DNA of 64,000 bases from a phage (GCA_020773975.1 GCA_020773975.1_3638.1), one strand, 5' to 3'. Shown: positions 1-22,181, counted from the first letter of the stretch. The notes: generated by a model not told the origin, from the letters alone. Program-made: numbers and translations.

Positions 1-1
1 G

Positions 2-1528: not shown

Positions 1529-1543
1529 GAAGGAGATACTTTT

Positions 1544-2638: not shown

Positions 2639-2655
2639 TCATTCAGGAGAGTTGC

Positions 2656-3240
2656 ATGAACAAAATATTTGGACCATTTTTCCCTTATTCTCCACTTCCT
2701 GATAATGCAACAGGAGCTACGAAAAGATTGTTGGAAGCTAACCCTTTCGCCCCTTTTTTCTATGAAGAATCTACGGGGAAAGACTATTATGAAATAGCCG
2801 AAGAATTGAAATCCCAAACAGAGCCGGGGAAATATGCTTTTCTTTCGCTGGATCTCGACGATAGGGTTTGCTGCGTTTGCTATGAAGGTTTTGATGGGTG
2901 CACTCCTTTCAGCGGCTGGAAAATAGCGGTTGTTCCGGTAGAAAATTTGCCTAAAGGCATTGAGTATGACCTCGGTGACGTGGCATTAAAAGATGGCAAA
3001 TTTGTTTATACCTATTTCCGATCTATACAAGAGGCAAAACTTCACAAGGATAAGGAAATTGCATGGGCAAGTCAATATATTCAGACATATGAAGACTATG
3101 AGCAGGTAACAGGTAAAAAACTACCAGAGCACATGGCAGATATTCTTAAGAAATTAAAGATTTATCGTTGTGAGGTATTAAGCATTAAAACTGAGGATGC
3201 TCCTAACATAACATGGGCTATAAGACCGTCAGTTGAGTAA
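2656..3240 (+). CDS. hypothetical protein (possible fibre accessory or assembly protein)
   Basis: ORF packed between two fibre genes; no motif recognised. Confidence 0.4.
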   Translation: MNKIFGPFFPYSPLPDNATGATKRLLEANPFAPFFYEESTGKDYYEIAEELKSQTEPGKYAFLSLDLDDRVCCVCYEGFDGCTPFSGWKIAVVPVENLPKGIEYDLGDVALKDGKFVYTYFRSIQEAKLHKDKEIAWASQYIQTYEDYEQVTGKKLPEHMADILKKLKIYRCEVLSIKTEDAPNITWAIRPSVE

Positions 3241-3252
3241 AGGAGCTAAGGA

Positions 3253-3567
3253 ATGTCTATTGACCTATTTGCTATCTTAAAAGCCGTATGGGGCGTATTG
3301 ACGTTTTTCTTAGTTGGTGTTCTGAAGCTAACATACTCAGACTATAAAAAGACACAACAACGTCTTGATGAACTTGATAGGGACATCATAAGAATTAAGG
3401 CAGAAATGGTCACTAAAGAAAAACTTGATGAGATTCTTGATAAAAAACTGAAAGCTGTCCGCGATGATGTTTCAGATTTTAGAAAAGACTTAAAAGAGGA
3501 TGTAAGCAGTTTGAGAGTTGATCTTATAGACCGGCTTAAAATTCTTATAGAGAGCCAAATGAAATGA
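3253..3567 (+). CDS. small membrane-anchored coiled-coil protein
   Basis: N-terminal hydrophobic segment followed by charged heptad-like region. Confidence 0.4.
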   Translation: MSIDLFAILKAVWGVLTFFLVGVLKLTYSDYKKTQQRLDELDRDIIRIKAEMVTKEKLDEILDKKLKAVRDDVSDFRKDLKEDVSSLRVDLIDRLKILIESQMK

Positions 3568-4040
3568 TAAGTTCTGCACTGTACTTTATATGCTTTGCAG
3601 TGCTACTTCTTGATAATGATAAAGGTATCCGAACCATGTCAGTACTTGGCATGGTTCATATCCTGATAGAGAATATATTGTACTGGTGGTTCAGTTCCCA
3701 TATCTACGCATTTGATTTATCACTCTACCTAACTTTTTGTTGGTTTTTGGATATATCTCTGATTTTCTTTACTGCATGTGTTTTGACAGGATGGAGAAAA
3801 AAGCTAATGCTTGCACTATCTCTACCTGTTTTGTTTTGCCAAATTTTAATTATGCAGTTCCCATTTATTTTACCGAACGCATTAGGCTTCACGATAAATT
3901 CATCATATCCAACATTTATGGAAGTTCTTTTATTATGCGCTGCATACAAAACAGGTACAATAAAAGAATTGTTTAAAACTTCTGTTGTTGTTGTTGGTTT
4001 CATAATTATAGCCAGAATTGTTCCTGGAGTAAATTATTGA
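3564..4040 (+). CDS. multi-pass membrane protein
   Basis: Several hydrophobic segments; 4-nt start/stop overlap with the upstream gene. Confidence 0.4.
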   Translation: MISSALYFICFAVLLLDNDKGIRTMSVLGMVHILIENILYWWFSSHIYAFDLSLYLTFCWFLDISLIFFTACVLTGWRKKLMLALSLPVLFCQILIMQFPFILPNALGFTINSSYPTFMEVLLLCAAYKTGTIKELFKTSVVVVGFIIIARIVPGVNY

Positions 4041-4055
4041 GGATTCTAATGTATT

Positions 4056-4319
4056 ATGATAAAATCAATATTGAAATTTTTAAAAGATCTTGTCAGATCC
4101 CCAGTAAATCCAGAGAAAGCCTCCCACACAAAATTTTGGAGCAATATCGGATTAGCTGCAATGACAGCAGTTTTTTTGGATTGGGGTTTCAAAGGCACAT
4201 TAACGGAGTGGTATATGTGGGTGTATGCCCCCACAGTAGCTGCCCCGCAGTTAATAAGTAAGTTAATATCTCTACGCTGGGGTGTAGAAGCACAACGTAG
4301 GGAAGAGTCAGACCAATAA
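4056..4319 (+). CDS. small membrane protein
   Basis: One predicted TM segment (NIGLAAMTAVFLDWGF); function unknown. Confidence 0.35.
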   Translation: MIKSILKFLKDLVRSPVNPEKASHTKFWSNIGLAAMTAVFLDWGFKGTLTEWYMWVYAPTVAAPQLISKLISLRWGVEAQRREESDQ

Positions 4320-4329
4320 GGAGATTCTT

Positions 4330-6081
4330 GTGGCGGACATGACTAAATTTGAACAGGCGGTAGATCAGGTTGTAGAAGATTCTGAACGCCTTCATAAAGT
4401 TGTCAATGGGGCAGCTACTGAAACTGTAGTTACAGAGGATGGCAGTCTGATACCTACAGTCAGAAAAGCATTTCTTGACAATTTATTCTTTAAAACACCT
4501 CCACTGCCGTGGGTTGCTGGACAACAGACGACGGTATTTAATCAGTTGTATGCCTATACAGGGGAAAGAGGTGTCCAATGGTGGTATGCACCCGGTGCGA
4601 CAGAGAGTTCGCCTGTAACACTACCTCCTAATCCAGTCAATAATGTTAACTGGAGATTATACAACGATTCAGAATCTATTTCTCAGGTATTTGCGCCTAT
4701 TGACAGCCCTATTTTTACAGGGAACCCTCAAGCACCAACACCATCAGCGGATAGTAACAGTACAACTCTGGCAACAACACAATTCGTTACTAGAGCTATT
4801 GCTACTGCTTTGGCTGGAATTGCGGGTGGCAACGGTACATTCGCGGATCTTACTGTAACAGGTTTAGCGAGTCTTAATACGCTTTCTGTTGGCGGTGTGT
4901 CAACATTTAATGGGCCTGTTAATGCTGAAAATCAAACAGGAAAATTCCAGAATCTTATCTTAACAAAAGATAATTCAAGTCTATCTTTTGCCTACAGTGA
5001 TGATTCTAACCCGACGTTTATGAAAACAAGGCTTGAAGCATACTCAGCGCAGACACATCAGTTACATACAGACATCATCATAAACGGTGTGCCAGTAGCA
5101 GACAATACAACAATGTCTTTCACAGGTCTTGGTAATAATACCTTCGACTATGTTTACATTACAGGTAACTCTAAAAAAGACCCTTCTGAAGCTCGTCTTA
5201 AAGTTTCTGGGATAACAGAACTTGAAAACTTAAAGATTACAGGTACTGTAACAGGACTTTCTTTTTCTGTCAATGGGGAAGATATCTCGCCTAATTCTGT
5301 AACAACGGCACAAGGGATTACTGTAGGTGGTGATTTACAAGTCAATGGTAACACCAATCTCAACAGTACAACATGTGAGAGCTTAGAAGTTACTAACAAC
5401 CTTGTTGTTAATGGACAAGCCAGTCTCAAAGATTTCTCCTCTACAACTGGTAATGTCACAGAGCTATTAACTTTAGGGGAGGGATTCACTGCGACTGGTG
5501 ACGGGTATGTAGGTGGTGATCTAACTGTCAACGGAACTTCAACCCTTGGTAAGATAATATCTGATGGCGATGTGACTTTAAATAGATCTTCTGGCACAAC
5601 AACAGTAAACAACCTGATTGTTAAGGGGACTGTATCTGGTATTACGGTTGATTTGACAGGACAAAACGTAAACGTAGCATCTCTTTCTGCTCAAAGCAGT
5701 GTAACGACAGATCAGTTATTTGTTAACGGCCAGACACAACTTTCTTCCACCAATGTAAGTTTCCTAACTTTACAATCGGAAGAAGTTGACGATCCGACAG
5801 CAACATGGGCACCAAGCGGCACATCCAACATTTATAATGTCACAGTAAATAAAAATCTGACAATCGGAGCATGGCCTGATCCACAGCAACCTTTCTCCGC
5901 TATGATTTATCTGACGCAGGATGCCACAGGTGGGCACAGTGTGACTCTGGATCCTAATTATGTTGTCCTTAACAGTGAAACTGTTAATACAACAGCAAAT
6001 TCAGTCACCATCCTTCAATTAACCTTTAATGGTGTTGAAGGTGGGGTTATCGACACTGTTATTGTCCGTAGACCACAATAA
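4330..6081 (+). CDS. tail fibre protein
   Basis: N-terminal fibre motif SPIFTGNPQAPTPSADSNSTTLATTQFV followed by long T/N/G/S-rich repeats; RBS upstream; GTG at 4321 is an alternative start. Confidence 0.65.
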   Translation: MADMTKFEQAVDQVVEDSERLHKVVNGAATETVVTEDGSLIPTVRKAFLDNLFFKTPPLPWVAGQQTTVFNQLYAYTGERGVQWWYAPGATESSPVTLPPNPVNNVNWRLYNDSESISQVFAPIDSPIFTGNPQAPTPSADSNSTTLATTQFVTRAIATALAGIAGGNGTFADLTVTGLASLNTLSVGGVSTFNGPVNAENQTGKFQNLILTKDNSSLSFAYSDDSNPTFMKTRLEAYSAQTHQLHTDIIINGVPVADNTTMSFTGLGNNTFDYVYITGNSKKDPSEARLKVSGITELENLKITGTVTGLSFSVNGEDISPNSVTTAQGITVGGDLQVNGNTNLNSTTCESLEVTNNLVVNGQASLKDFSSTTGNVTELLTLGEGFTATGDGYVGGDLTVNGTSTLGKIISDGDVTLNRSSGTTTVNNLIVKGTVSGITVDLTGQNVNVASLSAQSSVTTDQLFVNGQTQLSSTNVSFLTLQSEEVDDPTATWAPSGTSNIYNVTVNKNLTIGAWPDPQQPFSAMIYLTQDATGGHSVTLDPNYVVLNSETVNTTANSVTILQLTFNGVEGGVIDTVIVRRPQ

Positions 6082-8749: not shown

Positions 8750-9031
8750 TCAAGAGAAAAACTCTTCTATAACTTCCCAAACCCTTTCCGAACCCCCTCC
8801 TGAAAGGATACTCCAAATAACCATATCTTGATAGCCTTTCTTACACACATCCACTTGTCGAAATGCTTTGTGGAAACCCTCTGGACAACCATATTCCACA
8901 GGGAGCATATCCACATTATCTTCGAAATATTTAAGTAGCAATTCCTCTTCCAAAGAGGGGTTGTTGCGAAGTTTCTCTTTGAGATTCTCAACAAGTTGTG
9001 CACCTGTTAACTTTTTGTTTGTCATGTCCAA
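8750..9031 (-). CDS. hypothetical protein
   Basis: ORF in leftward operon; preferred over the overlapping frame 8767-9003. Confidence 0.35.
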   Translation of the reverse strand: MDMTNKKLTGAQLVENLKEKLRNNPSLEEELLLKYFEDNVDMLPVEYGCPEGFHKAFRQVDVCKKGYQDMVIWSILSGGGSERVWEVIEEFFS

Positions 9032-9378
9032 TCTCCATTTTTAATTTCCAGTATATCTACGCTCTCTGTTGGTACAAAGCCAACAACAGGCTTCATACAT
9101 TTCTCTTTTACATTATCGAAGACATACATTTCATCCAATGCTTTTTGTGTTGTGCACGATTCCCAGTTTTTTGTGTACTCTTTGTAGCCATCCTCGTAAA
9201 GGAGGAAGTAGTTAATAGTTGTTGCCCCAAGAATAACGAACATAACAAAAGAGACAACAACGTGTTTCCATGTTCCTTTATACGATAAAATGAAAGCCCA
9301 AATAGAACACAACACATAAAACGATAAAGCAGGGAACCAGTTATTATGCACCTGTACCCACTCTAAAAAAGACATCAT
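9022..9378 (-). CDS. membrane protein
   Basis: Multiple hydrophobic segments. Confidence 0.4.
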   Translation of the reverse strand: MMSFLEWVQVHNNWFPALSFYVLCSIWAFILSYKGTWKHVVVSFVMFVILGATTINYFLLYEDGYKEYTKNWESCTTQKALDEMYVFDNVKEKCMKPVVGFVPTESVDILEIKNGDWT

Positions 9379-9382
9379 GTTT

Positions 9383-9676
9383 CTATCCTTTATTTATATA
9401 TCTCTTCCAGTCAGAAACAATGTTAGATGCAAGCTGGTAAGTTCCGTTGGCATGTCCATCAGTTTTTGCTGCCGCTTTTACATATGGTAGGGATTGTTCG
9501 AGAGCATCCACAATCAAGGGACACATTGCAATAGCCAAAGCTAGATTCCCGTTTTCAGCGGTACAGATTGGGGAGTAGCTCTCCATTCCGTTTCCGTATT
9601 TCTCAAGACTACCTTTAACAATAACTTGGTCTTCACCAAACAAATCCTCATGATGTTCCCACATTTCTTCGATCAT
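9383..9676 (-). CDS. hypothetical protein
   Basis: ORF tightly packed in operon. Confidence 0.4.
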   Translation of the reverse strand: MIEEMWEHHEDLFGEDQVIVKGSLEKYGNGMESYSPICTAENGNLALAIAMCPLIVDALEQSLPYVKAAAKTDGHANGTYQLASNIVSDWKRYINKG

Positions 9677-9898
9677 CTAGTTGTTCCTCAATTTTGCCAT
9701 TGCATTATTAAATATTTTTTCGAGTTTCCTGTATTTAATCTTTTGTTTTATGCTTAACTTTTTTCTCTCTCCGGCAACCATTGCGCCATAATACTTAAAT
9801 AAAACAACACGTCTATTGCTTACTTTTAATACTTGGGATTCCCTTTTCCTTGGCAGGAGAAGGATTTTAGCTTTGCGATTTTTCAACTTTACCTCCAA
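9677..9898 (-). CDS. small basic protein
   Basis: Lys/Arg-rich 73-aa ORF. Confidence 0.3.
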   Translation of the reverse strand: MEVKLKNRKAKILLLPRKRESQVLKVSNRRVVLFKYYGAMVAGERKKLSIKQKIKYRKLEKIFNNAMAKLRNN

Positions 9899-10310
9899 TC
9901 ATCTTATCCAGTTTTCGCCACATATCCCACACACCACCATTACCTATTGTGTTTTTCGATGGAGTCACACAGGCGATAAATTCCAGATCAGTGCCCTTAT
10001 TCATAAGATATTCAGATACCAACCCTGAAGCGATCAGTTTTATATTTTCAAGGTCTTCTTCAAGCTCCTTAATACGAGCCTGTGCTTTTTCAATTTCTTC
10101 CTTATGTCTTTTGTATTCTTGAAAAGCGTGCCAAGATTGTCCTTTATGAACACTTTCACAAATGGCCTCTACTTGCTCTTTTGAGAGCACAGTGAGTGGT
10201 TGAGATGGGAAAATCATTATTTGTCCACTATCCCAATCGAATCCTGCATGTATAGATTGAACATCAACCGAAGGTGTTGCTCCAACAGTACCTGGGGAAT
10301 GAATAACCAT
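9867..10310 (-). CDS. hypothetical protein
   Basis: ORF; overlaps neighbour ends in another frame. Confidence 0.4.
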   Translation of the reverse strand: MVIHSPGTVGATPSVDVQSIHAGFDWDSGQIMIFPSQPLTVLSKEQVEAICESVHKGQSWHAFQEYKRHKEEIEKAQARIKELEEDLENIKLIASGLVSEYLMNKGTDLEFIACVTPSKNTIGNGGVWDMWRKLDKMIGGKVEKSQS

Positions 10311-10491
10311 CGTTAATTTTAATCAAAGGGAAGTCAGTAATCAAGACATGATTTAAACCAACGGCAGTAACAAGGTATTTCTGCTCTGGATCCCAAGACA
10401 ATTTAGACTTGTACAAACAACCTTGTCTAATTTTAAAATCTTCCACACACCCACCCTTCACAGTTGTGATCACGACATCCTTCAAAATCAT
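10264..10491 (-). CDS. hypothetical protein (possible fragment)
   Basis: Overlaps both neighbours by 47-59 nt in different frames. Confidence 0.25.
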   Translation of the reverse strand: MILKDVVITTVKGGCVEDFKIRQGCLYKSKLSWDPEQKYLVTAVGLNHVLITDFPLIKINDGYSFPRYCWSNTFG

Positions 10492-11068
10492 ATGGGCTGT
10501 ACTGCCAGGTTATTTTTCCGCAGTGCGGACAATTCCAGCGCACTTTCCCGCTTCGTGACCTCTTCCTTCTGTTCTGCTTTTTCAACCAATCAGGCATGAC
10601 CAAACCTGCGCCCTGAACCATTGTTCTGCGGTTAAAGTTATTGATATTGAACGTCCGGCGCTTTGCTGCATCAGCAATGGAAAATGGCAACCAAACTATT
10701 CCTGGTTCGTTTTTGTTGGCGACGCTAAAGATGGTCGCTTTACTGAAGTCATCTGTTGGCAATCCACCGTGTTGAAGCCAGTAAACATCGTTGCCGTTCC
10801 AGCTACCTTTTTTGTAGGCCACATACGCAGTGCAATCTGACTCAATCAGGCTTTCTGTAGGGATGTACTGGCAATCAACGTGCCACACAGCCATTGCATC
10901 CACACTATCAGCGCAAACAGGTTGATCGATATCTCGACCACAATTCCAGGCTTTTTGGGCTTCTTCCAGCGTGTAAACATGAGCGCGATCGATATCATAA
11001 CTGTAACCATTGCCGTTATGGCAATGGAATGAGGCGTTATTACCCACAGTTTCACGCAAGCACATCAT
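10433..11068 (-). CDS. Cys-rich hypothetical protein
   Basis: C-terminal CPHCG...C...C zinc-ribbon-like cluster; start placed at internal Met to avoid overlap. Confidence 0.4.
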   Translation of the reverse strand: MMCLRETVGNNASFHCHNGNGYSYDIDRAHVYTLEEAQKAWNCGRDIDQPVCADSVDAMAVWHVDCQYIPTESLIESDCTAYVAYKKGSWNGNDVYWLQHGGLPTDDFSKATIFSVANKNEPGIVWLPFSIADAAKRRTFNINNFNRRTMVQGAGLVMPDWLKKQNRRKRSRSGKVRWNCPHCGKITWQYSPYDFEGCRDHNCEGWVCGRF

Positions 11069-11082
11069 GTAAAAACGGTTGC

Positions 11083-11532
11083 TCACTGGTTGCCTCCGTT
11101 GCGAAGCTGTTCCGCACAATGCCGCAGGGCATCCGTAGCATCTTTAAGCGTAACCATCTCGTCATCATCCAGTCCTGCTCCCCTCGCATCCATGACAAAC
11201 GCTGCGCAAAGGTCGTTAAACACTTCAGCCCGTATTTCAGCCAGAAAAGCATCGGTGGCTGGGGTTTTGATATCATAAATTTCAGGAAGAATCTCTTCCC
11301 ATGTGACGATATCACCATTCAAATGCCAATCGGCAATCCCACTGGAGTTATCAGCAACATCGTGGACAGCTTTAATCGCTCTGTGCAGGGCTATATTCTC
11401 AGCAACCAATTCTGCACAACGAGTCTCCAGTTCTGAGATTTTCTTTTTATTATGGTATCCCTTTTCTAAAAGAGTTGCGCATTTACTACCTAGGCGTTTG
11501 ATTTCATTGGTGTACACTGATTTCTCAGTCAT
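11083..11532 (-). CDS. hypothetical protein
   Basis: ORF in GC-richer segment. Confidence 0.4.
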   Translation of the reverse strand: MTEKSVYTNEIKRLGSKCATLLEKGYHNKKKISELETRCAELVAENIALHRAIKAVHDVADNSSGIADWHLNGDIVTWEEILPEIYDIKTPATDAFLAEIRAEVFNDLCAAFVMDARGAGLDDDEMVTLKDATDALRHCAEQLRNGGNQ

Positions 11533-11752
11533 GGTTGGCTACCCCTTTCTTCAACAACTTGATGTTAGTTTTAAGTTCTGCAATTTGACACATAGCGTCA
11601 ATATTTGTGTCTTCTAACTTCTTAATTTCATCAAGAAGTGTCAATACAACCTCCGGTGTTACCATACTACGATAATCCGTCACCTCTTGATAAGTACCGC
11701 CATCTCTTGCTATCTCTGCTAACTTACGTAATTCTTGGTAGTCAATTTTCAT
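11525..11752 (-). CDS. hypothetical protein (prophage Ea22-like flavour)
   Basis: Short acidic coiled-coil ORF. Confidence 0.35.
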   Translation of the reverse strand: MKIDYQELRKLAEIARDGGTYQEVTDYRSMVTPEVVLTLLDEIKKLEDTNIDAMCQIAELKTNIKLLKKGVANHD

Positions 11753-12146
11753 AACTTGATAAGTCCTGCGTTGTTTTATTTACTACATCATATGCCTCTT
11801 TGAGCACCCAGTCAACAGCATCTTTCCATGCTCCGGTTTCGACTGGTGGATTCTCACGCTTAACCTGTTCATAGAAGCGCACTGCTTTAATCAATCCTTC
11901 TAAGGTTACAGGTGTGGTGTATAACGCCTGAATTTCGTAGTTTGGTCTGTCGTTACAATCCTCTTTTGTCGGTACATATTTCCAGTCACCAACCCACGGC
12001 TCCCCCTGAGAGTCCGTAACGCCTTTTTTCACGTAGCGATATCGCCATGCAACTGGTTGTTGGGTTGCTGCTTTAAGGCTTGGTGACGAAGATGGAAGCG
12101 CAACATTAGTCATTTCCGAGATGACAGGTTGATAACCATTGCTCAT
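11742..12146 (-). CDS. hypothetical protein
   Basis: ORF with PVAW motif shared with 12386-13048 and 61008-61418 products. Confidence 0.4.
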   Translation of the reverse strand: MSNGYQPVISEMTNVALPSSSPSLKAATQQPVAWRYRYVKKGVTDSQGEPWVGDWKYVPTKEDCNDRPNYEIQALYTTPVTLEGLIKAVRFYEQVKRENPPVETGAWKDAVDWVLKEAYDVVNKTTQDLSSYEN

Positions 12147-12321
12147 TTAAATCTCCTCCTGCCTCATATGCCACTTGTAACCAATACATAAATGTTTCAA
12201 TAGAAACACAACCACAATCCACATCAATCTGGTCATGTTGTTGTTCCAACCACTGCTGAAAACGTGATTTTTGAGTATCATTCTCTGGTTGTTCTTTTAT
12301 CATTATCACCCCCATCGGCAA
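12106..12321 (-). CDS. hypothetical protein
   Basis: 71-aa ORF. Confidence 0.3.
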   Translation of the reverse strand: MPMGVIMIKEQPENDTQKSRFQQWLEQQHDQIDVDCGCVSIETFMYWLQVAYEAGGDLNEQWLSTCHLGND

Positions 12322-12385
12322 ACTGAGTACACTGCAAAGGCTACAGCCATTACAACCCCTACCGTTGTGAATGCTTCAGGCCAAG

Positions 12386-13048
12386 TCATTGATTCATCCC
12401 CTTCTTTTTGAGCATAGCGGCACGACAGGCATTCCAGCCATCAACATAATCAAACGTATTGCTATCGTCTGGCTCGATTTCATCTGGTACTGCCAATGTC
12501 GGCTGGGCGGCAGCATTGGCAAAGGCTGCACGCAACCCTGTCTTAATCTCCTCTACCTCATCAGCACCTAGCGATGAATCTGACAGTGCATGATGGAATG
12601 CGTATGCCATGTCGTCGTTTACTGTTATCGGTTCCACTTTCTTTACTGTAAGTGTTGGCGGTACATGATACAACGGGATTACACGACGCGGGTCTGTACC
12701 TTTACCTGGTGGGTACGGCATTATCCAGCCTAAACCAATCTGATCAACATCCCGCAACTCCTCTTCGTCCGTCCATCCCACCGGTTCTGCTCTCAACTCC
12801 ACCTGCGCATTAGGGGAGGTGTAGAGTGGGATTCCTTTCCTCCCACCAGAAAATTCATTGCGAGCGTTATACTCACGACCATCTGCGTCCTCACACATCC
12901 ATGCTACAGGCTCTGTTTCCAGCACTGCCAGAGCAATTCGAGCCAGTTCTTGCGCTTCTTCTGCTGGCAGTACAACGTTGCCACCAAGTCCGTATGTTTC
13001 GCGCCATTGCTTGATTGTCAGCAGACGTTCTTTGGTAATAGTGGTCAT
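12386..13048 (-). CDS. hypothetical protein
   Basis: 220-aa ORF in GC-richer segment. Confidence 0.45.
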   Translation of the reverse strand: MTTITKERLLTIKQWRETYGLGGNVVLPAEEAQELARIALAVLETEPVAWMCEDADGREYNARNEFSGGRKGIPLYTSPNAQVELRAEPVGWTDEEELRDVDQIGLGWIMPYPPGKGTDPRRVIPLYHVPPTLTVKKVEPITVNDDMAYAFHHALSDSSLGADEVEEIKTGLRAAFANAAAQPTLAVPDEIEPDDSNTFDYVDGWNACRAAMLKKKGMNQ

Positions 13049-13050
13049 AA

Positions 13051-13242
13051 CTATTTCACCTTAATCTCAACATTTCTCACATCTAGCTCTACGGGGAGTT
13101 CTGACTTTCCGGTCAGTGCTAATGCAAGATTTTCTGGGGTAACAAGGACAGTTATTGTTTTTCCTCTCTCCAGACGAATAGCCATTCTTATCTTGTCATC
13201 ATCACCTGTGTTAGGTCGAGTAATTGATATTTGTCCGTTCAT
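13051..13242 (-). CDS. hypothetical protein
   Basis: Start moved to internal ATG (MNGQ...) which has AAGGATAAA upstream. Confidence 0.35.
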   Translation of the reverse strand: MNGQISITRPNTGDDDKIRMAIRLERGKTITVLVTPENLALALTGKSELPVELDVRNVEIKVK

Positions 13243-13274
13243 ATATTTATCCTTTGTTATTAATATGCCAATCC

Positions 13275-13400
13275 TTAACAAATAGTTATGTGAATGAAAG
13301 AAAGCAACCAAAGAATTGACTCAATAGCTGCCCAACCAATAACTGCACAAACAACACCAAGAAACAAGAAAAAACCAGTACTGGGCAAATTATTGAACAT
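13275..13400 (-). CDS. 41-aa hydrophobic peptide (small membrane protein)
   Basis: Not in the ORF track (<60 aa): RBS GGAGTGAGG then ATG; MFNNLPSTGFFLFLGVVCAVIGWAAIESILWLLSFIHITIC read by hand. Confidence 0.3.
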   Translation of the reverse strand: MFNNLPSTGFFLFLGVVCAVIGWAAIESILWLLSFIHITIC

Positions 13401-13642
13401 CCTCACTCCCTTTTTTGTTATTAACACGCTGTTGGAGGTCTTTTAGATGGTCAATATTAGAGCGAACATGCTTAAGTAGCTGCTCTTTTGTAAAGGTTTT
13501 CATGATTCCCCCTCATTGAACAGAATATCTCGTAATACAGGGACGCTTTTATCCATACTTGCTTTAAATTGTTTACTGTTCGCACTTGCCCATGTATACA
13601 CAACCATTTTAGCAGCGTCGCTCAAAGTTTCATACTTATTTC

Positions 13643-13984
13643 TTAAAGCTCCTTGAACAAATCTATGTTGTCTTGTACCCATTGCAAGCGTTCTTTGTTC
13701 TCATGGCAAGCCTTTTTAAACATTTCTCTACTATAGGGACTTGTCTGGTTGAAAGGCAATCTTTTGTCTAGCCCCGCCTTTTCGAAATCATCATGCAGCA
13801 TGTCTAGTAGGTCATCTCTGTAGCAGGACAAATGATTCACATTGCACCAATCAAATAAATTAGCGCACAAACCACAGTCACGAGAGAAAATATCAGAGTC
13901 TGGTGCTCCTCTTTTTACCCAAGCATCGTAAGAAAGGTAAAAACTTTGTAGTAAGACATGTAGCTTTGTAATATCAAAATTCAT
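13643..13984 (-). CDS. hypothetical protein
   Basis: ORF. Confidence 0.4.
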   Translation of the reverse strand: MNFDITKLHVLLQSFYLSYDAWVKRGAPDSDIFSRDCGLCANLFDWCNVNHLSCYRDDLLDMLHDDFEKAGLDKRLPFNQTSPYSREMFKKACHENKERLQWVQDNIDLFKEL

Positions 13985-14400
13985 TGTTCGAAATCTCCAT
14001 TACGAAGTTGTTCTGCATAAAGAAGGGCTTGCTTTCCCGCATAGATGATGCTTTCTTCTTGCTCCTGCTCTCCGATACGGATTGTGAGCATACCGTACAT
14101 ATGAACACCTTGAGCCATCATCTCTGTAGAAAACTTCTGTGTGGCTTCCAAACCAGGCATTAAAAGTGATTGATCTGCTGGGGTATATGCATCAGAGATA
14201 TCAGATTGTTCCCCATCAAAAACATAACAACTCTCACGAATGAACTTCTTTAGGAGTGCATTTTCTGATGCTACGTCAATGAACATACCCTCCAGTTTCT
14301 TGTAGTCATCGTAAGAAACCATGTCTGTACAGAAGGAACTCCCTTGTACAGGGGGTGATAAATAGTCACTTGGTATTGCATGTATCTTTACATTTCTCAT
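13981..14400 (-). CDS. hypothetical protein
   Basis: Start placed at internal Met (MRNVK...). Confidence 0.4.
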   Translation of the reverse strand: MRNVKIHAIPSDYLSPPVQGSSFCTDMVSYDDYKKLEGMFIDVASENALLKKFIRESCYVFDGEQSDISDAYTPADQSLLMPGLEATQKFSTEMMAQGVHMYGMLTIRIGEQEQEESIIYAGKQALLYAEQLRNGDFEQ

Positions 14401-14466
14401 AGAAATTCTCCACAAAGTGTCAGGTAGCGAAATGATACACAAACAGATTGCCTATAGCAAGTGTTC

Positions 14467-14838
14467 TTAATTAGCCAATTCAGCATCCAACGACATTATA
14501 TACTCAGGTAGCTTTCGGATGTTCTCATACAGCACAATCTCTCCGTGTGTCAATGGCCTGATTTCTTTATCCACACCAACATTATTATGGTAATCCCAAT
14601 CGGCATCAACATGGACGAAGACCAGTGTTCCTCTATTGCCAGCCTTAGCGTCCTTTCTTACGATAATCTCTCCGTCTATTGAAGGTAGGCATCTTTTGAA
14701 GAATTTGTTTAAAAGTTTTTGTTGAATTGCTTCTGCCAAGATCATTTTGTCTTGGCTATCTACGATTCTTTTGATTTCAGAGTCGTTTACTTCAACATCA
14801 ATAAGTTGTGTTGTTGTCTGGGTTCCTTTTACTTTCAT
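14467..14838 (-). CDS. hypothetical protein
   Basis: ORF downstream of polymerase terminator. Confidence 0.4.
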   Translation of the reverse strand: MKVKGTQTTTQLIDVEVNDSEIKRIVDSQDKMILAEAIQQKLLNKFFKRCLPSIDGEIIVRKDAKAGNRGTLVFVHVDADWDYHNNVGVDKEIRPLTHGEIVLYENIRKLPEYIMSLDAELAN

Positions 14839-14856
14839 GCCACCTCTTCTTTTAAA

Positions 14857-14876
14857 AAGGTGCTTTTCAGCACCTT
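14857..14876 (-). terminator. rho-independent terminator after DNA polymerase exon 2
   Basis: AAGGTGCT-tttc-AGCACCTT hairpin followed by T-run on minus strand. Confidence 0.55.
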
Positions 14877-14883
14877 ACCATTT

Positions 14884-15183
14884 TTAGTGAGAATCTGCCC
14901 ATGTGTATCCACAAAGATATTCTCCTGTAATTAAAACTGGAAGCCCCATTATCTTAGATGCTTTTTCTACACATTTTGTTGCAAGCTCTCCTACTGGGCA
15001 ATGCAGTATCCTGTATTTCCCATACACATCAGGTTCAACAATAACTCTACCCGCTTTCACATAATGTCCGTCGAAACGATGACCTTTTTCAAGCATCATA
15101 TCTACATAGCTTTGTGCCGCCTCTAAGTTAGAATGCTCCGTTATTGATTTAAATCTTTCCGGTACTTGTACCTGTATCTCATC
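14884..15183 (-). CDS. family A DNA polymerase, exon 2 (motif C to C-terminus)
   Basis: Begins DEIQVQVPERF (HDE motif C once joined to exon 1) and ends GEYLCGYTWADSH like PolA C-termini. Confidence 0.85.
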   Translation of the reverse strand, partial: DEIQVQVPERFKSITEHSNLEAAQSYVDMMLEKGHRFDGHYVKAGRVIVEPDVYGKYRILHCPVGELATKCVEKASKIMGLPVLITGEYLCGYTWADSH

Positions 15184-15501
15184 CATCAGTTCAGAGAGTT
15201 CGTTACGCTCTCCCGCACCATTACGTGCATAGCCACAAGATTTCTCCTGTGGGTCGGACTATCTCATCCTCCTGATATTAAGGAGGCCTCCCGTTTCGAC
15301 CGCACTTGCTGGCCTACTCTACTCGCTTTCACATTACTAGTGTGCTTTCGATAGTCTCTGAACGTTCATCCCATAGGGATGCTTCGCTGCGGATTAGCAT
15401 ATTGAACTTTTGCTACTTTTACGTATAAAAGCCAGCTTAGCCTTCCCGTCAATTAGAGAGGTTTTCGACATGCATTACTGCATGAAGCCACAATGTTATT
15501 T
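15184..15501 (-). ncRNA. group I self-splicing intron (ORF-less, 318 nt) in DNA polymerase gene
   Basis: P/Q/R/S-like elements AAUUGACGGGAAGG, AAUCCGCAGC, GUUCAGAGACUA, AGAUAGUCCGACC; IGS GUGG pairs with exon end CCAU; ends in G. Confidence 0.8.
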
Positions 15502-17913
15502 ATGGTAGTAGATAACCCTCCTGACACCTTGGTCGTACCATCCCCATTTCACCAATTCCCAATGGAACAGGACTCCCATGAGGTCAAACAATGAAGCACC
15601 ACCGTTTTGTTGGTAAGCATTCAGCAGAGAATGTTTAGAACGAGTCCAAATTTTACGCCCGTCCATGCCTGGAATATAGCGTCTCCCATTTGCCTCCCAG
15701 AATTTTTCCAACCACTCCCTACGCATTTTCAACCCGAAGTTACTATCCCAGAATGCATCTATTACAGCCTGTGCTCTATTAAGGGGGATACCCAGCATTG
15801 CGGCTATCTTAGGAGCTTGTGCTCCATACATAATTCCATACGTAACCCCCTTTCCTCCAGAGCGTGTTACCTCCTTTCCTGCTGCTATTGTGTATGCTCT
15901 TGCGTTTCGTTCATGGGCATCCTCTTCCATCATGATACGTAAATACTCACCACCATCAAACTCAAAAGCCCCTGCCGCTGCAATCATACCTTCTAAGTTA
16001 GATCCATCACAACCCATCAGGTAGTAGCCTTCAGGGACTGTCCAAAGACCCCGCATTTCTTTTCCCAACAAAACCTTCGGATCAGGCTTGGGCATGTTTG
16101 CGCAAACAGTATGCTTGCACCTGCCCGTGTTAGTGATTCCAGAAAAACGTGCTGGAAGTTTTCCGTCAATGTCTAAACGAGGGTGATTTAATAACCCTGT
16201 ATCCGTCTTATCCTCATCCATTGGGTCTAAAACAGATCGCCTGTTACGAAGTGATAGCCACTTAACAATCTGTTTTGCCATATGCACATCAATTTTCTCC
16301 AAATTTGGACACAGATGCCCAAAATTATCTTTTAATTGAGGAGATGTCGGTAACTGGCGTGCTTTACGCCGAAATTTCTTAAATATCTCTGAATAACCCC
16401 TTTCAGATGCATGGCGATGGTCAAACTTACGCTCTGAAATGTTGAATTTCTCATCTGAATCATTAAGGTAGTCAAGAATAAGAGATTTATACTCAGACTC
16501 TGCCAACTCTTCTATGTACTTCTTAACTAGTACATCAATTTCAGAATCTTCACGAGTCTTTTTAAATTGATCCTTAGTAACATCTTTTACGCGCCACAGT
16601 GTAGGTTTCCAACCAGCATCTTTGATCAAATATTTTTTAATATCATCCTGATTAGAGATTTTCATTGGAACCATTAAATCTGGCATTTTTCTGTTTCGAA
16701 GGTCTTCTTTAGCCTTCTCTAGAAGATCCGGCGGTAAAGGTTCGAGTGTGTTCTCTTTGGTTCGCTGGGAACGAATGAAATCACCGTATAAAGCCGGATC
16801 TTCAATGCCATTCTGGATGCAATATCTCTCCCCTGCTGCACTTACATCCCCATTGCTCTTAAAAGCTGTTTTTGGTGGAGCTTTAAACTCCAGAGCTTCC
16901 CTGTTAACAGGATAGCCAAGTTTATATTCCAACCAATTCCACCCATGATGAGATATATTACCCGCTGTGTCAAAAGGGTTAGCTGGGAATTTTGGTTGTT
17001 GAGATTTCGTCATCTCTTTTTTTGGAAGAAGTGGTTCTACCTCTTCTTCAATTTCTCGCATCATCTTATCTATGCGATCTCTTAATTTTTCTGCCTCCTC
17101 CCGATTAAAGTATACGCCTTGTATTTCTTGCTCTATCATCAAATAGTCTGTGAGCATTCTCCTACGTAATGCATTTTTCCAATTAATCTGGTGCATCCCG
17201 TGAGGTTTATCAGTGTACATAAACTGCTTGTCATCAGGCCATCGCGTACCATTTGACTCATCAATAAGAGCTTTCCACACAAGTTCGTTAATGATAACGT
17301 CTTCCCACACACGGTTTACATATTCCCACAATGGCTGATTACGCCAATCATCAATCTGCACTTTCTTGTTTGCTACACGATAACCCCATGCCAATAAGCC
17401 GTGTGGCCCAACCCTGTCACGTTTTCCTGTTACAGGGTTCAATACAGAATCTGGGCAGCCATTAGGCAATGGGCGATCTGGGTAAAGAACACGACTCATT
17501 GAAAGAGTGTCGTAAAGATTTACCTGTTTATTACCTATCGTCCCCATACATTTTAGGTCTTTGAACATGTCATATTCAATCCCAGAAAGTTTTTTCCACA
17601 GACGTAAATCATAGCCGAACAGGTTATGTATTGCTATCCCTCTTGGCTCGGTCTGCAACCAAGAGTAAAAATCATCATAAGAAAGGATACGTAAATTAAC
17701 ACCTTCTTTGCTGCGTGCAAAATTAACTGCACTCTGGTATTCCTTGTGAGCAGGATCGAGAAACAACACCCAGTTATTTACAGCATATTCTTTAAAAAGT
17801 GTGCAGTGATATTTAGTTGCCTCTTCTAATAATCCGTCAGCTTCGTTATCTCCGACAAAAAGCCCTTTCATACTCCTCCTATTCAAGATGGGCTTGACTG
17901 TATCGTCGCCCAT
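15502..17913 (-). CDS. family A DNA polymerase, exon 1
   Basis: Motif B RSGGKGVTYGIMYGAQ; ORF runs 2 codons into the intron before a stop. Confidence 0.85.
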
Positions 17914-18066: not shown

Positions 18067-21039
18067 TCAAAATGGAGAATCGCTATCTAAATCTTCAGGT
18101 TGCTCAATCACAACAGCAGGTTCTTGTTGAGGAACAGAAACAGCAATTTTCCCCACAGGTGTTTCAAGTTCCAGACTTTGAATCATTGATTTAGGTCTTA
18201 GCATTACCTCCCCGTTGAGTTTAAACATATTGTCTTCCCACACCCATCCTGACGCATCAGAAAACTGACCATTATCATCCATAATCAGGGTATCCGCTAT
18301 GCCTAATTTTTTGTGTGGACGGTTTTTCAAAACAACACTACGAATACGCCCACGAGATCGGTCAGGGAGTTCTTCAGGCTCGACACCTAAGACAACCCAC
18401 GATAACTGTTCGAGTGCTGCACTATTTCCTGTGACAAAAATATGTCCGTTGCGGCGTGCCACCCACATACCGGATGGTAATGTAAAGCAATACTTGCGAC
18501 CATCTGGGGAAGGTACACGTTTAATAGAAGATTTATTTTTCCCTCCTTTACGTATATGCATATACTTTGTGGCACAAACTCTTACTACATACAGAGGTTT
18601 GTGATCATATTTACCATCAAACGCACCATTGCCATTTTTTACAACAGACACAGACGTTCTATGCCCACAAGCACTGTAAGCAAATTGTAGGAAATCTGCC
18701 TCAAATTTGTTAATGGTTGATACCCTGTTTCTGTTTACAGAATCACCATCCCAATACATGACTTCATCACAGATAATCTCCAACTCGTGCTGTTTAAGAT
18801 TAAACCATTCCTTTGTCACCCCTTTATACCCACAAGGGGCTTTAAATTGGTACTCTGTTCTGCCTTCATGCTTCCCGTGCAAATCAAAACTCTTGTAAGG
18901 AGTGTTCGTCTTCTTCAGTAGCATCTCAAGGCGTTGTTTCTTACGTTCTTTTTTGATGCGTACAGCTACCCTTCCCGTTGATTCAGTAAGAACCGTCCCA
19001 TCAGCATTTACAGCTATCTGTAAACGTAGTTGATCATCAGTTAACCCTAATGAACCATCACATCCAGTGGTGAATGTAGTAGGTATTTTACCACGCATAC
19101 CTGATCGTTTATTGGTATGGTCATGAACAACCTCCTGCATAGTTTTCATACGAAAAATATCAGGCGTTCGATCGTTTACATACACAACACGATGTTCATC
19201 GCTCAACATCATGTCTACAACATGGCTATTAGAAAGATGCCACATTTCATTACAAGGTAGATTAATGTACGCCTCGGGATTTACGAAGGTCATTACACCA
19301 TTTTTATCGTGTTGTGCAACCAAATCTCCTTCTACGTATTCATCAATACGTTTCCAGCCTTGCGGGGTTAAGAACTCTGTGCTTGCATCAACACAACCAC
19401 GGAGATCCTCTTTCCGCACAGGATACCAAAACGGTAACAAATTACCTTCTTTATCTTTCGGAATTTGTATATCAACACGCTTCATATGACTGATACTGAG
19501 GATAAACACGTCATATTTTTTGCAGAAGGCAGCCAATTCCGTCATGATGTTATCTAAATCTCTTCGCTCGTTATCGGATTTTAATCCTGATATCACCATC
19601 GATAAGTGATCTAAGATAATCCATCTACACCCATCAAGGAAAACCATCTGTTTCAATTTTTGTAGTAATTGGTCAGTTGGTATTGAACCAAAGTGATCGA
19701 AAATTTTAACCTTATCTTCGGCAATCCATCGTTGGTGTATAGCTAAGTGCTGCTCATCGGTAAGGAATTGTTCTGGGTCTGCAACAAATGCTTTCGGGTC
19801 AATCTTTAGCTCCTCAGCATATAAACTGTTTACAGACTCCTCCTCATCCTCCTCTAGACGAATAATTGCAATTTTCTCGTTCTCTTTCCAACCGTCTAAT
19901 CGGGGAATATCCATGTTACGGAGGTACTCGATAATTGCATACTCAATCTTTCTTGAGAAAGTTGATTTCCCAGCTCCAGATGGGCCTGTCAGTGTCCACA
20001 ATTCTCCTGTTCGTGGGCCTCTTGTTAGTTCATACAAACGAGGAAAGCACGGCAACGGAACGCCATCTTTTTTCTTTTTACGGAGATTTTCAATAGATAT
20101 TCTCTCCAACCCAATCAATTTGTCTGGAACATATTTATCCTGCGCTTTAGCAAACATATTCCAGATATCCATCCATTTACCTTTTTTGTAAATATCCCGG
20201 ATATCTTTAACACCATTTGGGTCATTGCGCTCATTTGGGTATCGTGCAACATAGATGTTGTCAGACAGTAAAAAACCTGCGACATCATCTGTGGCTTCCT
20301 TACCTTTCTTAATTCTGTGTTCTTTTTCCCTTGCTGTGGCTTCATCATTGTCTAAGCCAAGGACAATCTTTTCATATTCCCTGATAAACTTTTCGTTGTG
20401 GGCGAATGTATCCACAGCATTGGCTGTACCACAGTTCAACCCGATAAAAGGTAATGTCGGGCAATTAGAAACCTCTTCCCCATCCTGAATTGCTTTGATG
20501 CCTTTTAAAGCATTGTTTGCCCACTCACGTACTGAACGTGACGTGTTAGGATTGCTATGAAGGAATTTAATATACTCAAACCCAGCTTGCCAGCCAGCCG
20601 TTACATCACCTTCCCCCTCAACAATAAAGATCTGTTTTTTACCAGATCCCATAGAGGCCTCATGTTGACCAAAAAATTGAGAGGAAGCCTTTACTGTGCC
20701 AACAACAGAGAAATGCCCCTTTTTCTCTTTCGGAACAGTCCAGTCTCGTTTTTTGTACCCTGTCAATTTCCCATATTTGTCATAATATGGAAGATATGTT
20801 GCCACCACTGTAGTACCGTCTTTCAAATCTGTTGCAGATCTGATCTTGAAGTACTTAGCTGCATCTAAACTAATATCCATTTGGGGGACAGCCAAGATCC
20901 TTGTACTATCTAGGACAGACTCTACAGTTTCTTCTTCTTTTTTCTGATAATTCACTTTACCACCACTTTTTGTAGGTCGGAATGCTTTTGGGTTCTCACC
21001 TTCAAAGTATGCACCAGCCCCCCATTTTGTCATCTTCAT
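18067..21039 (-). CDS. T7 gp4-like primase-helicase (TOPRIM + DnaB-family helicase) containing an intein
   Basis: TOPRIM IVEGEGD...LGLDNDEA; Walker A GPSGAGKST; Walker B-like WIILDH; acidic C-terminus ending in F (DLDSDSPF) as in T7 gp4; no N-terminal Cys4 zinc ribbon seen. Confidence 0.85.
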   Translation of the reverse strand: MKMTKWGAGAYFEGENPKAFRPTKSGGKVNYQKKEEETVESVLDSTRILAVPQMDISLDAAKYFKIRSATDLKDGTTVVATYLPYYDKYGKLTGYKKRDWTVPKEKKGHFSVVGTVKASSQFFGQHEASMGSGKKQIFIVEGEGDVTAGWQAGFEYIKFLHSNPNTSRSVREWANNALKGIKAIQDGEEVSNCPTLPFIGLNCGTANAVDTFAHNEKFIREYEKIVLGLDNDEATAREKEHRIKKGKEATDDVAGFLLSDNIYVARYPNERNDPNGVKDIRDIYKKGKWMDIWNMFAKAQDKYVPDKLIGLERISIENLRKKKKDGVPLPCFPRLYELTRGPRTGELWTLTGPSGAGKSTFSRKIEYAIIEYLRNMDIPRLDGWKENEKIAIIRLEEDEEESVNSLYAEELKIDPKAFVADPEQFLTDEQHLAIHQRWIAEDKVKIFDHFGSIPTDQLLQKLKQMVFLDGCRWIILDHLSMVISGLKSDNERRDLDNIMTELAAFCKKYDVFILSISHMKRVDIQIPKDKEGNLLPFWYPVRKEDLRGCVDASTEFLTPQGWKRIDEYVEGDLVAQHDKNGVMTFVNPEAYINLPCNEMWHLSNSHVVDMMLSDEHRVVYVNDRTPDIFRMKTMQEVVHDHTNKRSGMRGKIPTTFTTGCDGSLGLTDDQLRLQIAVNADGTVLTESTGRVAVRIKKERKKQRLEMLLKKTNTPYKSFDLHGKHEGRTEYQFKAPCGYKGVTKEWFNLKQHELEIICDEVMYWDGDSVNRNRVSTINKFEADFLQFAYSACGHRTSVSVVKNGNGAFDGKYDHKPLYVVRVCATKYMHIRKGGKNKSSIKRVPSPDGRKYCFTLPSGMWVARRNGHIFVTGNSAALEQLSWVVLGVEPEELPDRSRGRIRSVVLKNRPHKKLGIADTLIMDDNGQFSDASGWVWEDNMFKLNGEVMLRPKSMIQSLELETPVGKIAVSVPQQEPAVVIEQPEDLDSDSPF
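18424..19395 (-). mobile_element. intein (324 aa, Hint + LAGLIDADG-like endonuclease) in the helicase domain
   Basis: Starts CVDASTEF..., ends ...HIFVTGN with +1 Ser; removal joins DLRG|SAALEQLS; LAGLIDADG-like LQIAVNADG. Confidence 0.75.
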
Positions 21040-21190
21040 CTCTTCTCCTTAGAAGGGTTTGCTAACTACAGCCATATACCAGCCATTACACACAGATATA
21101 CCACCTGAAATACAGTAACCTTTTCTAAACCAAGTGTTTAGCTTTAATTCTAATTCTGAAATACTAGTTCCTGTGAGAATCTTGACATTT

Positions 21191-21913
21191 TTATCCACCA
21201 GCCCTCCTAAAATCATTATATAGGAATACAGCTTTGGCAAATCCTCTTGGGGTTAACGATCTTATAACCTTTGTCTTTTTTGATTTACCACCCAATTTTA
21301 GGTGCTGCTCAGAATACCCGCTTACCACGGGAACAGGTAATTTCTCAGGCATCCTAAAACCATTGCCTGTCCACAAACAAGTCCTCTTAGGGTAGGCATC
21401 TCTGGGTTTTATGTATTCTGGAAAAAACGGATGAACATCATTCTCTGATAGATACCCGCCGTACTCATAAGGATGAAATGAATGATCTGGTTTACGCCAC
21501 AGAGAAGATAGAACACTAACAGGATTTTCTATCATGTAAGGGCAGTCGTATTCATCTGCCAACCTTGCTGCCACCTTTGCTGTATTTACAGCCTTTATCT
21601 GGAATAAAGGGTCTTTTGCAGCTTTTCTTGCGAAATGCGCTGCACCACTAACAGCCATGTCAGTACATGGTGGAGATGCGAATATAATACTTGGCTTACA
21701 GATCCCTATCTCTGTTGGGTTAAACTGGTCATCTATCCAAACATTAATGTATTCTATATTTTTATGTTTTACTCGGATACTTTCATAACCGCCGTGATCA
21801 GCGCCATCATAGTTAAGGCATATTACTTTGTACCCATTCTTTGCCCACTCATAACCCATGATGCCTGATCCGTCAAACATGTACAAAACCGTATCACTCA
21901 ATACACCTCCCAT
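21191..21913 (-). CDS. compact DNA (cytosine-5)-methyltransferase-like protein
   Basis: Motif I FDGSGIMG, motif IV ASPPCTD (PC dipeptide), motif VI IENP; only 240 aa, no obvious target-recognition domain. Confidence 0.45.
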   Translation of the reverse strand: MGGVLSDTVLYMFDGSGIMGYEWAKNGYKVICLNYDGADHGGYESIRVKHKNIEYINVWIDDQFNPTEIGICKPSIIFASPPCTDMAVSGAAHFARKAAKDPLFQIKAVNTAKVAARLADEYDCPYMIENPVSVLSSLWRKPDHSFHPYEYGGYLSENDVHPFFPEYIKPRDAYPKRTCLWTGNGFRMPEKLPVPVVSGYSEQHLKLGGKSKKTKVIRSLTPRGFAKAVFLYNDFRRAGG

Positions 21914-21923
21914 ACCAGAAAAC

Positions 21924-21946
21924 AGGCCCGTAATGTGGGCCTTTTG
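21924..21946 (-). terminator. rho-independent terminator
   Basis: AGGCCC-gtaatgt-GGGCCT hairpin with T-run on minus strand. Confidence 0.45.
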
Positions 21947-21959
21947 AGTACACTAGAAA

Positions 21960-22181
21960 TCAATGCAATGCTGTATGGACAGGAGTTCCATCTGCACCGT
22001 ATGGAATGTCTTGCACTTGGGAATGCTTTCTCACTAAAGTATACACCAGCCAACCTTCAGCTTCATGCTGTCCTGCAATGTCATAGCCATCATCAAGAAG
22101 TTCAGCCAGTTTGCTCTCTACTTCTTCTCTTTTTGTTTTGCTAATTTTGAACTCAATGAGTTTAACAGTGTTTTTAACCAT
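21960..22181 (-). CDS. hypothetical protein
   Basis: ORF. Confidence 0.35.
   Translation of the reverse strand: MVKNTVKLIEFKISKTKREEVESKLAELLDDGYDIAGQHEAEGWLVYTLVRKHSQVQDIPYGADGTPVHTALH

Follow-up and report, generated by a model that had tools for sequence, protein, structure and literature searches.

A minimal phage protein of the PHROG 757 family is very probably an intact, stand-alone DNA cytosine-C5 methyltransferase

A relative of the gene described here has been tested experimentally in phage K42, a member of the Drexlerviridae that is 95.4% identical to KarlJaspers/Bas06 (bioRxiv 10.1101/2023.08.16.553469). All K42 escapers of the retron Ec86 disrupt a 711-bp ‘dcm’ gene; K42 Dcm is toxic on expression if the retron is there and not otherwise, its expression raises the amount of 5mC in msDNA as detected by LC-MS, and a C82A/E128A/K175A/K176A mutant is inactive (bioRxiv 10.1101/2023.08.16.553469). 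The gene is encoded by 34 of the 35 retron-sensitive phages in that study (bioRxiv 10.1101/2023.08.16.553469). A peer-reviewed version is cited in PMC12871103 as Cell Rep 2024;43:114857, and later papers, in the passages that refer to this work, cite the same conclusion.

Here we analyse a stretch of phage DNA of 64,000 nucleotides (the window), in which an ORF call and a reading of the sequence place a 240-amino-acid ORF at 21191..21913 on the minus strand. The preliminary description of this locus had singled the ORF out as a C5-methyltransferase-like protein with P-C-T in place of P-C-Q and with no room for a normal target-recognition domain. It had offered three readings: a frameshifted or split methyltransferase, a low-specificity cytosine modifier and a protein with a different substrate. 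We conclude with high confidence that the product of this intact gene is a DNA cytosine-C5 methyltransferase, AdoMet-dependent, stand-alone and orphan, belonging to the PHROG 757 family of minimal enzymes of ~230 amino acids. Among phage methyltransferases this family is already known and very abundant; the gene is an ordinary member of it, and its nearest phage relative is already so annotated. The features of the gene are as follows.

21191..21913, minus strand: compact stand-alone cytosine-C5 DNA methyltransferase gene of the PHROG 757 family, orthologue of Av-05 gene Av05_00139; activity predicted
21863..21877, minus strand: motif I, F13-D-G-S-G17, read from the sequence as the loop that follows strand beta1 and binds AdoMet; in the model beta1 spans residues 8-12 and is followed by helix 18-25
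21641..21670, minus strand: motif IV and catalytic loop, P82-C83-T84-D-M-A-V-S-G90-A91, with Cys83 the predicted nucleophile, from conservation, the M.HhaI alignment and equivalence to K42-type Dcm; the P82-C83-T84 codons occupy nt 21662..21670
21521..21529, minus strand: motif VI, E129-N130-P131, with Glu129 the predicted proton donor to cytosine N3, from conservation, the M.HhaI alignment and equivalence to K42-type Dcm
21371..21394, minus strand: strand beta7 block, Y174-P-K176-R-T178-C-L-W181, in place of motif VIII (Q-x-R-x-R), from conservation; model strand 178-183
21263..21364, minus strand: short linker, residues ~184-217, where canonical enzymes carry the target-recognition domain
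21230..21262, minus strand: C-terminal block, R218-S-L-T-P-R-G-F-A-K-A228, from conservation; model helices 212-219 and 223-233

At the DNA level the region shares ~95% identity with Escherichia phage Av-05 (Vequintavirinae, Avunavirus) and with phages 18-1-2, 19-1-2, 24-2-1 and TH18. RefSeq labels the Av-05 orthologue, Av05_00139, ‘DNA methyltransferase’; it lies in the replication module, upstream of a small gene, a primase/helicase gene and pieces of a DNA polymerase gene. The window gene and this orthologue differ at 40 nucleotides and 14 amino acids (dN/dS = 0.16), and none of the 14 replacements falls on a conserved position. The methyltransferase gene is thus shown to be under purifying selection. 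Upstream of it, a consensus scan marks one further feature.

21924..21942, minus strand: terminator-like hairpin, AGGCCC-loop-GGGCCT and then a T-run, separating the 73-aa ORF upstream from the start of the methyltransferase gene

The same scan finds three terminator-like sites in the region against 1.2 expected, and this hairpin counts as weak evidence of a terminator.

The window protein matches the PHROG 757 profile ‘DNA methyltransferase’ along its whole length with E=3.1e-85, its residues 7-234 aligning with profile positions 15-219 of 247. By tblastn, homologues are present in 1,510 phage records; the carriers include phages of Escherichia, Klebsiella, Salmonella, Vibrio, Campylobacter, Arthrobacter and others, and the lineages represented include rV5-like myoviruses, T1-like Drexlerviridae and phiKO2. 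Annotations of these homologues range from ‘hypothetical protein’ to ‘Dcm-like C5 cytosine methyltransferase’. A search of 5.8 billion proteins returned 4,630 homologous clusters at 90% identity, and an exhaustive HMMER search returned 1,044 at 50% identity. Because the full-length members are nearly all 210-260 amino acids long, the window protein is not truncated: being small is characteristic of its family. The protein is unusually compact, as it had been called, when set against C5-methyltransferases in general, but its length is wholly usual within its own family. One copy from a ‘bacterial’ (Salmonella) assembly sits on a 48.5-kb T1-like phage contig, without a restriction-enzyme partner.

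We also observed the compact methyltransferase fold inside very large proteins of uncultured phages, BFVD entries A0A6J5SE15 (1,397 aa) and A0A6J5NPY6 (1,126 aa). Both are annotated ‘Helicase/UvrB, N-terminal’ and match at ~25% identity; they may be methyltransferase-helicase fusions.

To describe conservation within the family we aligned 53 representative sequences, whose identities to the window protein range over 32-56%. Motifs I, IV and VI, originally read from the single sequence, are present in the 240-aa ORF and are not there by chance; the key residues of motifs IV and VI are conserved in this alignment. The positions G27, G90, E129, P131, P148, Y174, K176, W181, P189, R218 and G224 are invariant, and the window protein keeps all 11 of them; P81, C83, T84, K97, N130, D172, T178, S219, P222 and A228 are conserved in at least 90% of the sequences. 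The window protein deviates from near-invariant positions with Asn34 for Asp and Met12 for Leu, and it has Ser80 where most members carry Phe. Asn34 occupies the usual motif II acidic position at the end of strand beta2, where Asn is also found in the K42-type proteins of the Drexlerviridae. For motif I the family consensus is F-D-x-T-G, which is looser than the canonical F-x-G-x-G. Compared with the canonical motifs, the whole family has Thr for Gln in motif IV and Pro for Val in motif VI. Since P-C-T and E-N-P are conserved family-wide, they are the family's own versions of these motifs and not peculiarities of the window copy.

Standard sequence comparison barely connects this family with the canonical C5-methyltransferases. 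A Pfam search of the window protein gave no match at E<=1, and hence none for PF00145, which is matched by just 3 of the 53 family members (best E=0.0067); an NCBIfam search of the window protein likewise gave no match. A phmmer search of the PDB with the window protein returned nothing, and comparison of the family profile with the PDB returned only non-significant matches to M.HaeIII (E=0.43) and DNMT2. With hhalign, the match to M.HhaI (whose sequence was verified against 10mh_A) has E ~0.1 and covers motifs IV-VI only. Its register nevertheless sets PPCT and IENP against FPCQ and MENV, and the motif IV loop against FPCQAFSISG, thereby pairing C83 with C81 and E129 with E119 of M.HhaI; the spacing from the Cys to a conserved Gly (C+7) is identical in the two proteins. 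Because these direct routes (Pfam, PDB, NCBIfam and hhalign) failed, it was PHROGs, the fold prediction and published work that established the relationship.

The AlphaFold2 model, built with the 53-sequence alignment, is a single domain with a pLDDT of 93.1 and a pTM of 0.90. It consists of a seven-stranded Rossmann-type sheet with a conserved ~23-residue insertion between beta6 and beta7, a ~35-residue linker after beta7, and two C-terminal helices that close the fold. This is the class I AdoMet-methyltransferase fold, and it is most similar to that of the C5-methyltransferases. The fold comparison gave scores of 13.7 for DNMT3B, 12.6 for the C5-carboxymethyltransferase 8yf3, 12.2 for the prophage methyltransferase 3g7u, 12.1 for DNMT3A, 11.6 for M.HhaI, and 10.9 for both M.HaeIII and M.MpeI. 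Fold, motif conservation and a functionally tested relative together uphold the initial reading of a C5-methyltransferase catalytic core that has P-C-T for P-C-Q and is devoid of a normal target-recognition domain.

The C-terminal half is where the protein departs most visibly from the canonical pattern. Neither Q-x-R-x-R (motif VIII) nor G-N-x-V (motif X) is recognisable in the window protein or the family alignment. From its place in the topology of the model, the beta7 block would be the counterpart of motif VIII. After beta7 there are only ~35 residues before a single motif IX-like C-terminal block, and no target-recognition domain. The family version of that block, R-S-x-T-P-R-G-F-A-x-A-V, can be compared with R-x-x-T-x-R-E-x-A-R of motif IX, and the last helix follows directly; the R218-A228 block thus appears to resemble motif IX, compressed with the helix of motif X. 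The remark that the protein has no room for clear motifs IX/X therefore stands for motif X, but a motif IX-like block is conserved. The linker (~184-217), together with the conserved beta6-beta7 insertion (~155-177), is a candidate for the DNA-reading element.

The link to K42 Dcm was made through the tunus/FritzSarasin gene, and its basis is the length of the gene, the numbering of the residues and the genus of the phage. In the Drexlerviridae phage tunus the homologue shares 97.7% DNA identity with its counterpart in the BASEL phage FritzSarasin, annotated ‘Dcm-like C5 cytosine methyltransferase’; it is 711 bp long and encodes 236 amino acids, with Cys82, Glu128, Lys175 and Lys176 in the numbering of K42 Dcm. 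The window protein is 54% identical to this 236-aa Drexlerviridae protein over 229 amino acids (E=1e-88), and its residues C83, E129, K176 and R177 are the equivalents of the four. The identity and the matching residues therefore make the window protein a relative, along its full length, of an enzyme for which C5 methylation has been demonstrated.

Could the window protein have kept the fold and lost the chemistry, so that it only binds AdoMet or DNA and serves, say, to regulate or to act as a decoy for the defences of the host? The loose motif I loop of the family, together with Asn34 and Ser80 at positions where most members have other residues, would fit such a dead protein. We consider this very unlikely, as the predicted catalytic residues Cys83, Glu129, Asn130 and Lys176 are all present and near-invariant family-wide, and the K42-type protein also has Asn at the motif II position yet is active.

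The other way in which the gene might fall short of a complete enzyme concerns the small ORF at its 3′ end. Some C5-methyltransferases are split and need a second polypeptide: M.AquI consists of an alpha and a beta subunit, and M.EcoHK31I of an alpha subunit and a small beta subunit translated from an overlapping frame. By analogy, the 240 amino acids might be only the catalytic part, with recognition and motifs IX/X supplied by the overlapping ORF or lost with a former C-terminus. The small ORF is listed here in the form that we consider best.

21049..21198, minus strand: separate 49-aa gene, PHROG 17689, with a GTG start at 21198 preceded by the Shine-Dalgarno sequence AGGAGGG, and with 8 nt of overlap with the end of the methyltransferase gene

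In its longest form this ORF has 63 amino acids and begins at a TTG codon. The 48-position profile of PHROG 17689 matches residues 16-63 of that form (E=2e-29), and Av-05 annotates a 150-nt gene at the same position, so the small gene is best read as 49 amino acids. The overlap reported for the 63-aa ORF is thus real, but it joins the methyltransferase to a separate gene. That overlap of 8 nt looks like translational coupling, and the order of the two genes is kept in Av-05-like and some 4MG/PVP-SE1-like phages, as a split enzyme would have it. The wider distribution does not agree with this: the 49-aa product occurs in just 33 phage records, all of Av-05-like or 4MG/PVP-SE1/GAP31-like myoviruses, against the 1,510 with the methyltransferase. 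In naam, an rV5-like phage, nothing separates the methyltransferase gene from the primase/helicase gene, and the small ORF is missing; in tunus its neighbours are unrelated and the small ORF is absent there. A Pfam search of the downstream neighbour in tunus, gp64 (128 aa), gave no domain, so that gene does not conceal a partner either. PHROG, Pfam and NCBIfam searches with the 49-aa product gave no methyltransferase signal. In addition, a length of 210-260 amino acids is the norm everywhere in the family, the model is a complete and confident domain closed by its own C-terminal helices, the K42-type enzyme is active when expressed alone, and the dN/dS of 0.16 speaks against a broken gene. A split or frameshifted methyltransferase is accordingly rejected, on the closed fold of the model, the activity of the K42-type enzyme by itself and the dispensability of the partner ORF, and we regard it as having next to no likelihood.

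Several observations concern the neighbouring genes. The 73-aa gene at 21960..22181 on the minus strand belongs to PHROG 10384, which is labelled ‘DNA ligase’; on a protein of this size the label looks like a propagated misannotation. The 49-aa and 73-aa products flank the methyltransferase and, by eye, have a common pattern, ...E-L-E-x-K-L-N/A...G-Y-x-I-x-G...G-W-x-x-A/T-x-V; from their sequences, they may be paralogues with a small fold. The primase/helicase at 18067..21039 (minus strand) has 990 amino acids in the window and 666 in Av-05. The difference is a clean insertion of 324 amino acids (residues 549-872, ~18424..19395) between flanks that are 99% identical; it starts with Cys (CVDASTEFL...), ends in ...HIFVTGN followed by Ser, and sits in the DnaB-like helicase domain. 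This insertion bears an intein signature; a Pfam search of it flagged no Hint or homing-endonuclease domain. The DNA polymerase of Av-05 is annotated in several pieces split by HNH homing-endonuclease genes (Av-05 1..4343), and in the window the interval ~9000..17913 holds an 805-aa ORF at 15496..17913 and then many small ORFs, which suggests that the polymerase gene of the window phage is similarly fragmented or invaded.

For the stand-alone cytosine-C5 methyltransferase that we favour, a mechanism can be proposed from the conserved residues and the established chemistry of C5-methyltransferases, and the K42 mutant supports its catalytic steps. Given its fold and motif I, the Rossmann core would bind AdoMet. 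The target cytosine would be flipped out and attacked at C6 by Cys83 of the P-C-T loop; Glu129 of E-N-P would protonate N3, and the methyl group would then pass to C5. Lys176 on beta7 probably stands in for the arginines of motif VIII. Because there is no separate target-recognition domain, the DNA would be read by the catalytic loop (83-100), the beta6-beta7 insertion (~155-177) and the short linker (~184-217), and dimerisation may help, as in DNMT3. Most likely the enzyme methylates the phage DNA once it has been replicated, and some restriction enzymes of the host would thereby be blocked. Such activity has a side effect, in that the retron Ec86/Eco1 senses it in a relative.

The substrate deserves separate consideration. 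An enzyme with this fold might act on single-stranded or hairpin DNA, on RNA (as DNMT2 does), or might transfer a carboxymethyl group from Cx-SAM. Such a non-canonical substrate or group would suit a protein with no target-recognition domain and no recognisable motif X, the motif that lines the cofactor pocket in canonical enzymes. It would also suit the K42 data, in which the substrate that gains 5mC, msDNA, is largely a single-stranded hairpin and msDNA from the empty-vector control in E. coli MG1655 has only low 5mC (bioRxiv 10.1101/2023.08.16.553469); MG1655 carries a dcm gene of its own. Nevertheless, the product of the relative is 5mC in DNA and depends on the catalytic residues, DNA methyltransferases rank above DNMT2 in fold similarity, and the gene lies within a DNA-replication module. 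As for Cx-SAM, no pathway gene is among those identified in the window. We therefore think a non-canonical substrate or group improbable. Of the possibilities first raised for this protein, a different substrate is accordingly less likely; a low-specificity cytosine modifier that would protect phage DNA is plausible.

The name ‘Dcm’ carries an expectation of CCWGG specificity that we could not trace to homology. Comparison of E. coli Dcm (472 aa) with the window protein gave E=3.6 in BLASTP and E=0.21 in hhalign, the latter over motifs IV-VI only, and on these values we rejected the kinship with E. coli Dcm that the ‘Dcm-like’ label implies. As nothing matches the recognition domain of Dcm, CCWGG specificity cannot be inferred by homology. 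The retron study took CCWGG by analogy, from the name ‘Dcm’, and its only test was the mutation of CCTGG in the msDNA hairpin (bioRxiv 10.1101/2023.08.16.553469). The low 5mC of msDNA in a host with its own dcm suggests that host Dcm and the phage enzyme do not prefer the same sites or substrates.

The window itself provides a second view of specificity. CCWGG is the most depleted 5-mer in it (27 observed against 53 expected, O/E 0.51), and the deamination products of CCWGG, CTWGG and CCWAG, show no enrichment. GGWCC has an O/E of 0.30, and AAGCTT, GAATTC, CTGCAG, CAGCTG, GGTACC, GGCGCC, AGCGCT and TCCGGA are all absent where 6-17 of each are expected. This fits a phage that relies on strong avoidance of restriction sites; as evidence against complete protection of its own CCWGG sites it is weak and ambiguous. 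In the BASEL study, resistance to restriction did not follow in any simple way from these methyltransferase genes (PMC8594841). A literature search for methylome data on Vequintavirinae or Drexlerviridae phages, or for ‘phrog_757’, found none.

One way to bring these observations together, which we put forward tentatively and hold to be possible rather than probable, is that the family is a minimal C5-methyltransferase with no target-recognition domain of any kind. Its specificity would then not be CCWGG; it would recognise a motif that is very short or relaxed, or else prefer a DNA structure (single-stranded or hairpin). Recognition would fall to the catalytic loop and the family-specific beta6-beta7 insertion, perhaps within a dimer like that of DNMT3. 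On this view one would understand why, on retron msDNA, the phage enzyme is not mimicked by host Dcm, why the methyltransferase content of phages does not predict their restriction resistance, and why the window phage continues to avoid CCWGG. If so, the enzyme would be among the smallest natural enzymes of the C5-methyltransferase class.

These results have practical implications. Phage records in GenBank often give this gene as ‘hypothetical protein’; it can now be named confidently, and the worry about a frameshift can be dropped. The interest that remains is at the level of the family, whose minimal architecture has no recognition domain and is invisible to Pfam and NCBIfam. Because one member is a known trigger of Eco1, a phage that carries the gene may be sensitive to this retron and its DNA may contain 5mC; this bears on host range in phage therapy, on cloning and sequencing of the phage DNA, and on its sensitivity to modification-dependent restriction enzymes. 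A minimal enzyme without a recognition domain could also serve as a scaffold for engineering.

Set beside the known systems, the window protein is closest to the Dcm of the K42/KarlJaspers type, with which it shares family, architecture, length class (236 versus 240 aa) and the status of an orphan, phage-borne enzyme, along with the blocks P-C-T, E-N-P, K-K/R and R-S-L-T-P-R-G-F. The two differ in that the window gene belongs to a Vequintavirinae/Avunavirus myovirus and the K42-type gene to a T1-like siphovirus, and in their gene neighbourhoods. M.HhaI and M.HaeIII (PF00145) have a target-recognition domain of ~80-100 amino acids, Q-x-R-x-R and G-N-x-V, which the window protein does not; nor does it have a cognate restriction enzyme, unlike these bacterial type II enzymes. 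E. coli Dcm and M.EcoRII (CCWGG) resemble it in the generic motif IV-VI core and in the ‘Dcm’ label of phage annotations. The catalytic domain of DNMT3A/DNMT3B is the closest solved fold, at just 11-19% identity to the phage protein; DNMT3 keeps a target-recognition loop and motif X and forms dimers or tetramers with regulatory domains. The C5-carboxymethyltransferase 8yf3 has 333 amino acids and a recognition domain and uses Cx-SAM, whereas the compact phage relative yields 5mC. Finally, M.AquI and M.EcoHK31I offer a similar arrangement of a catalytic polypeptide of ~250-310 amino acids and a small overlapping or adjacent ORF; in contrast to both, the small ORF here is dispensable across the family, and in the model the 240-aa protein forms a closed fold by itself.
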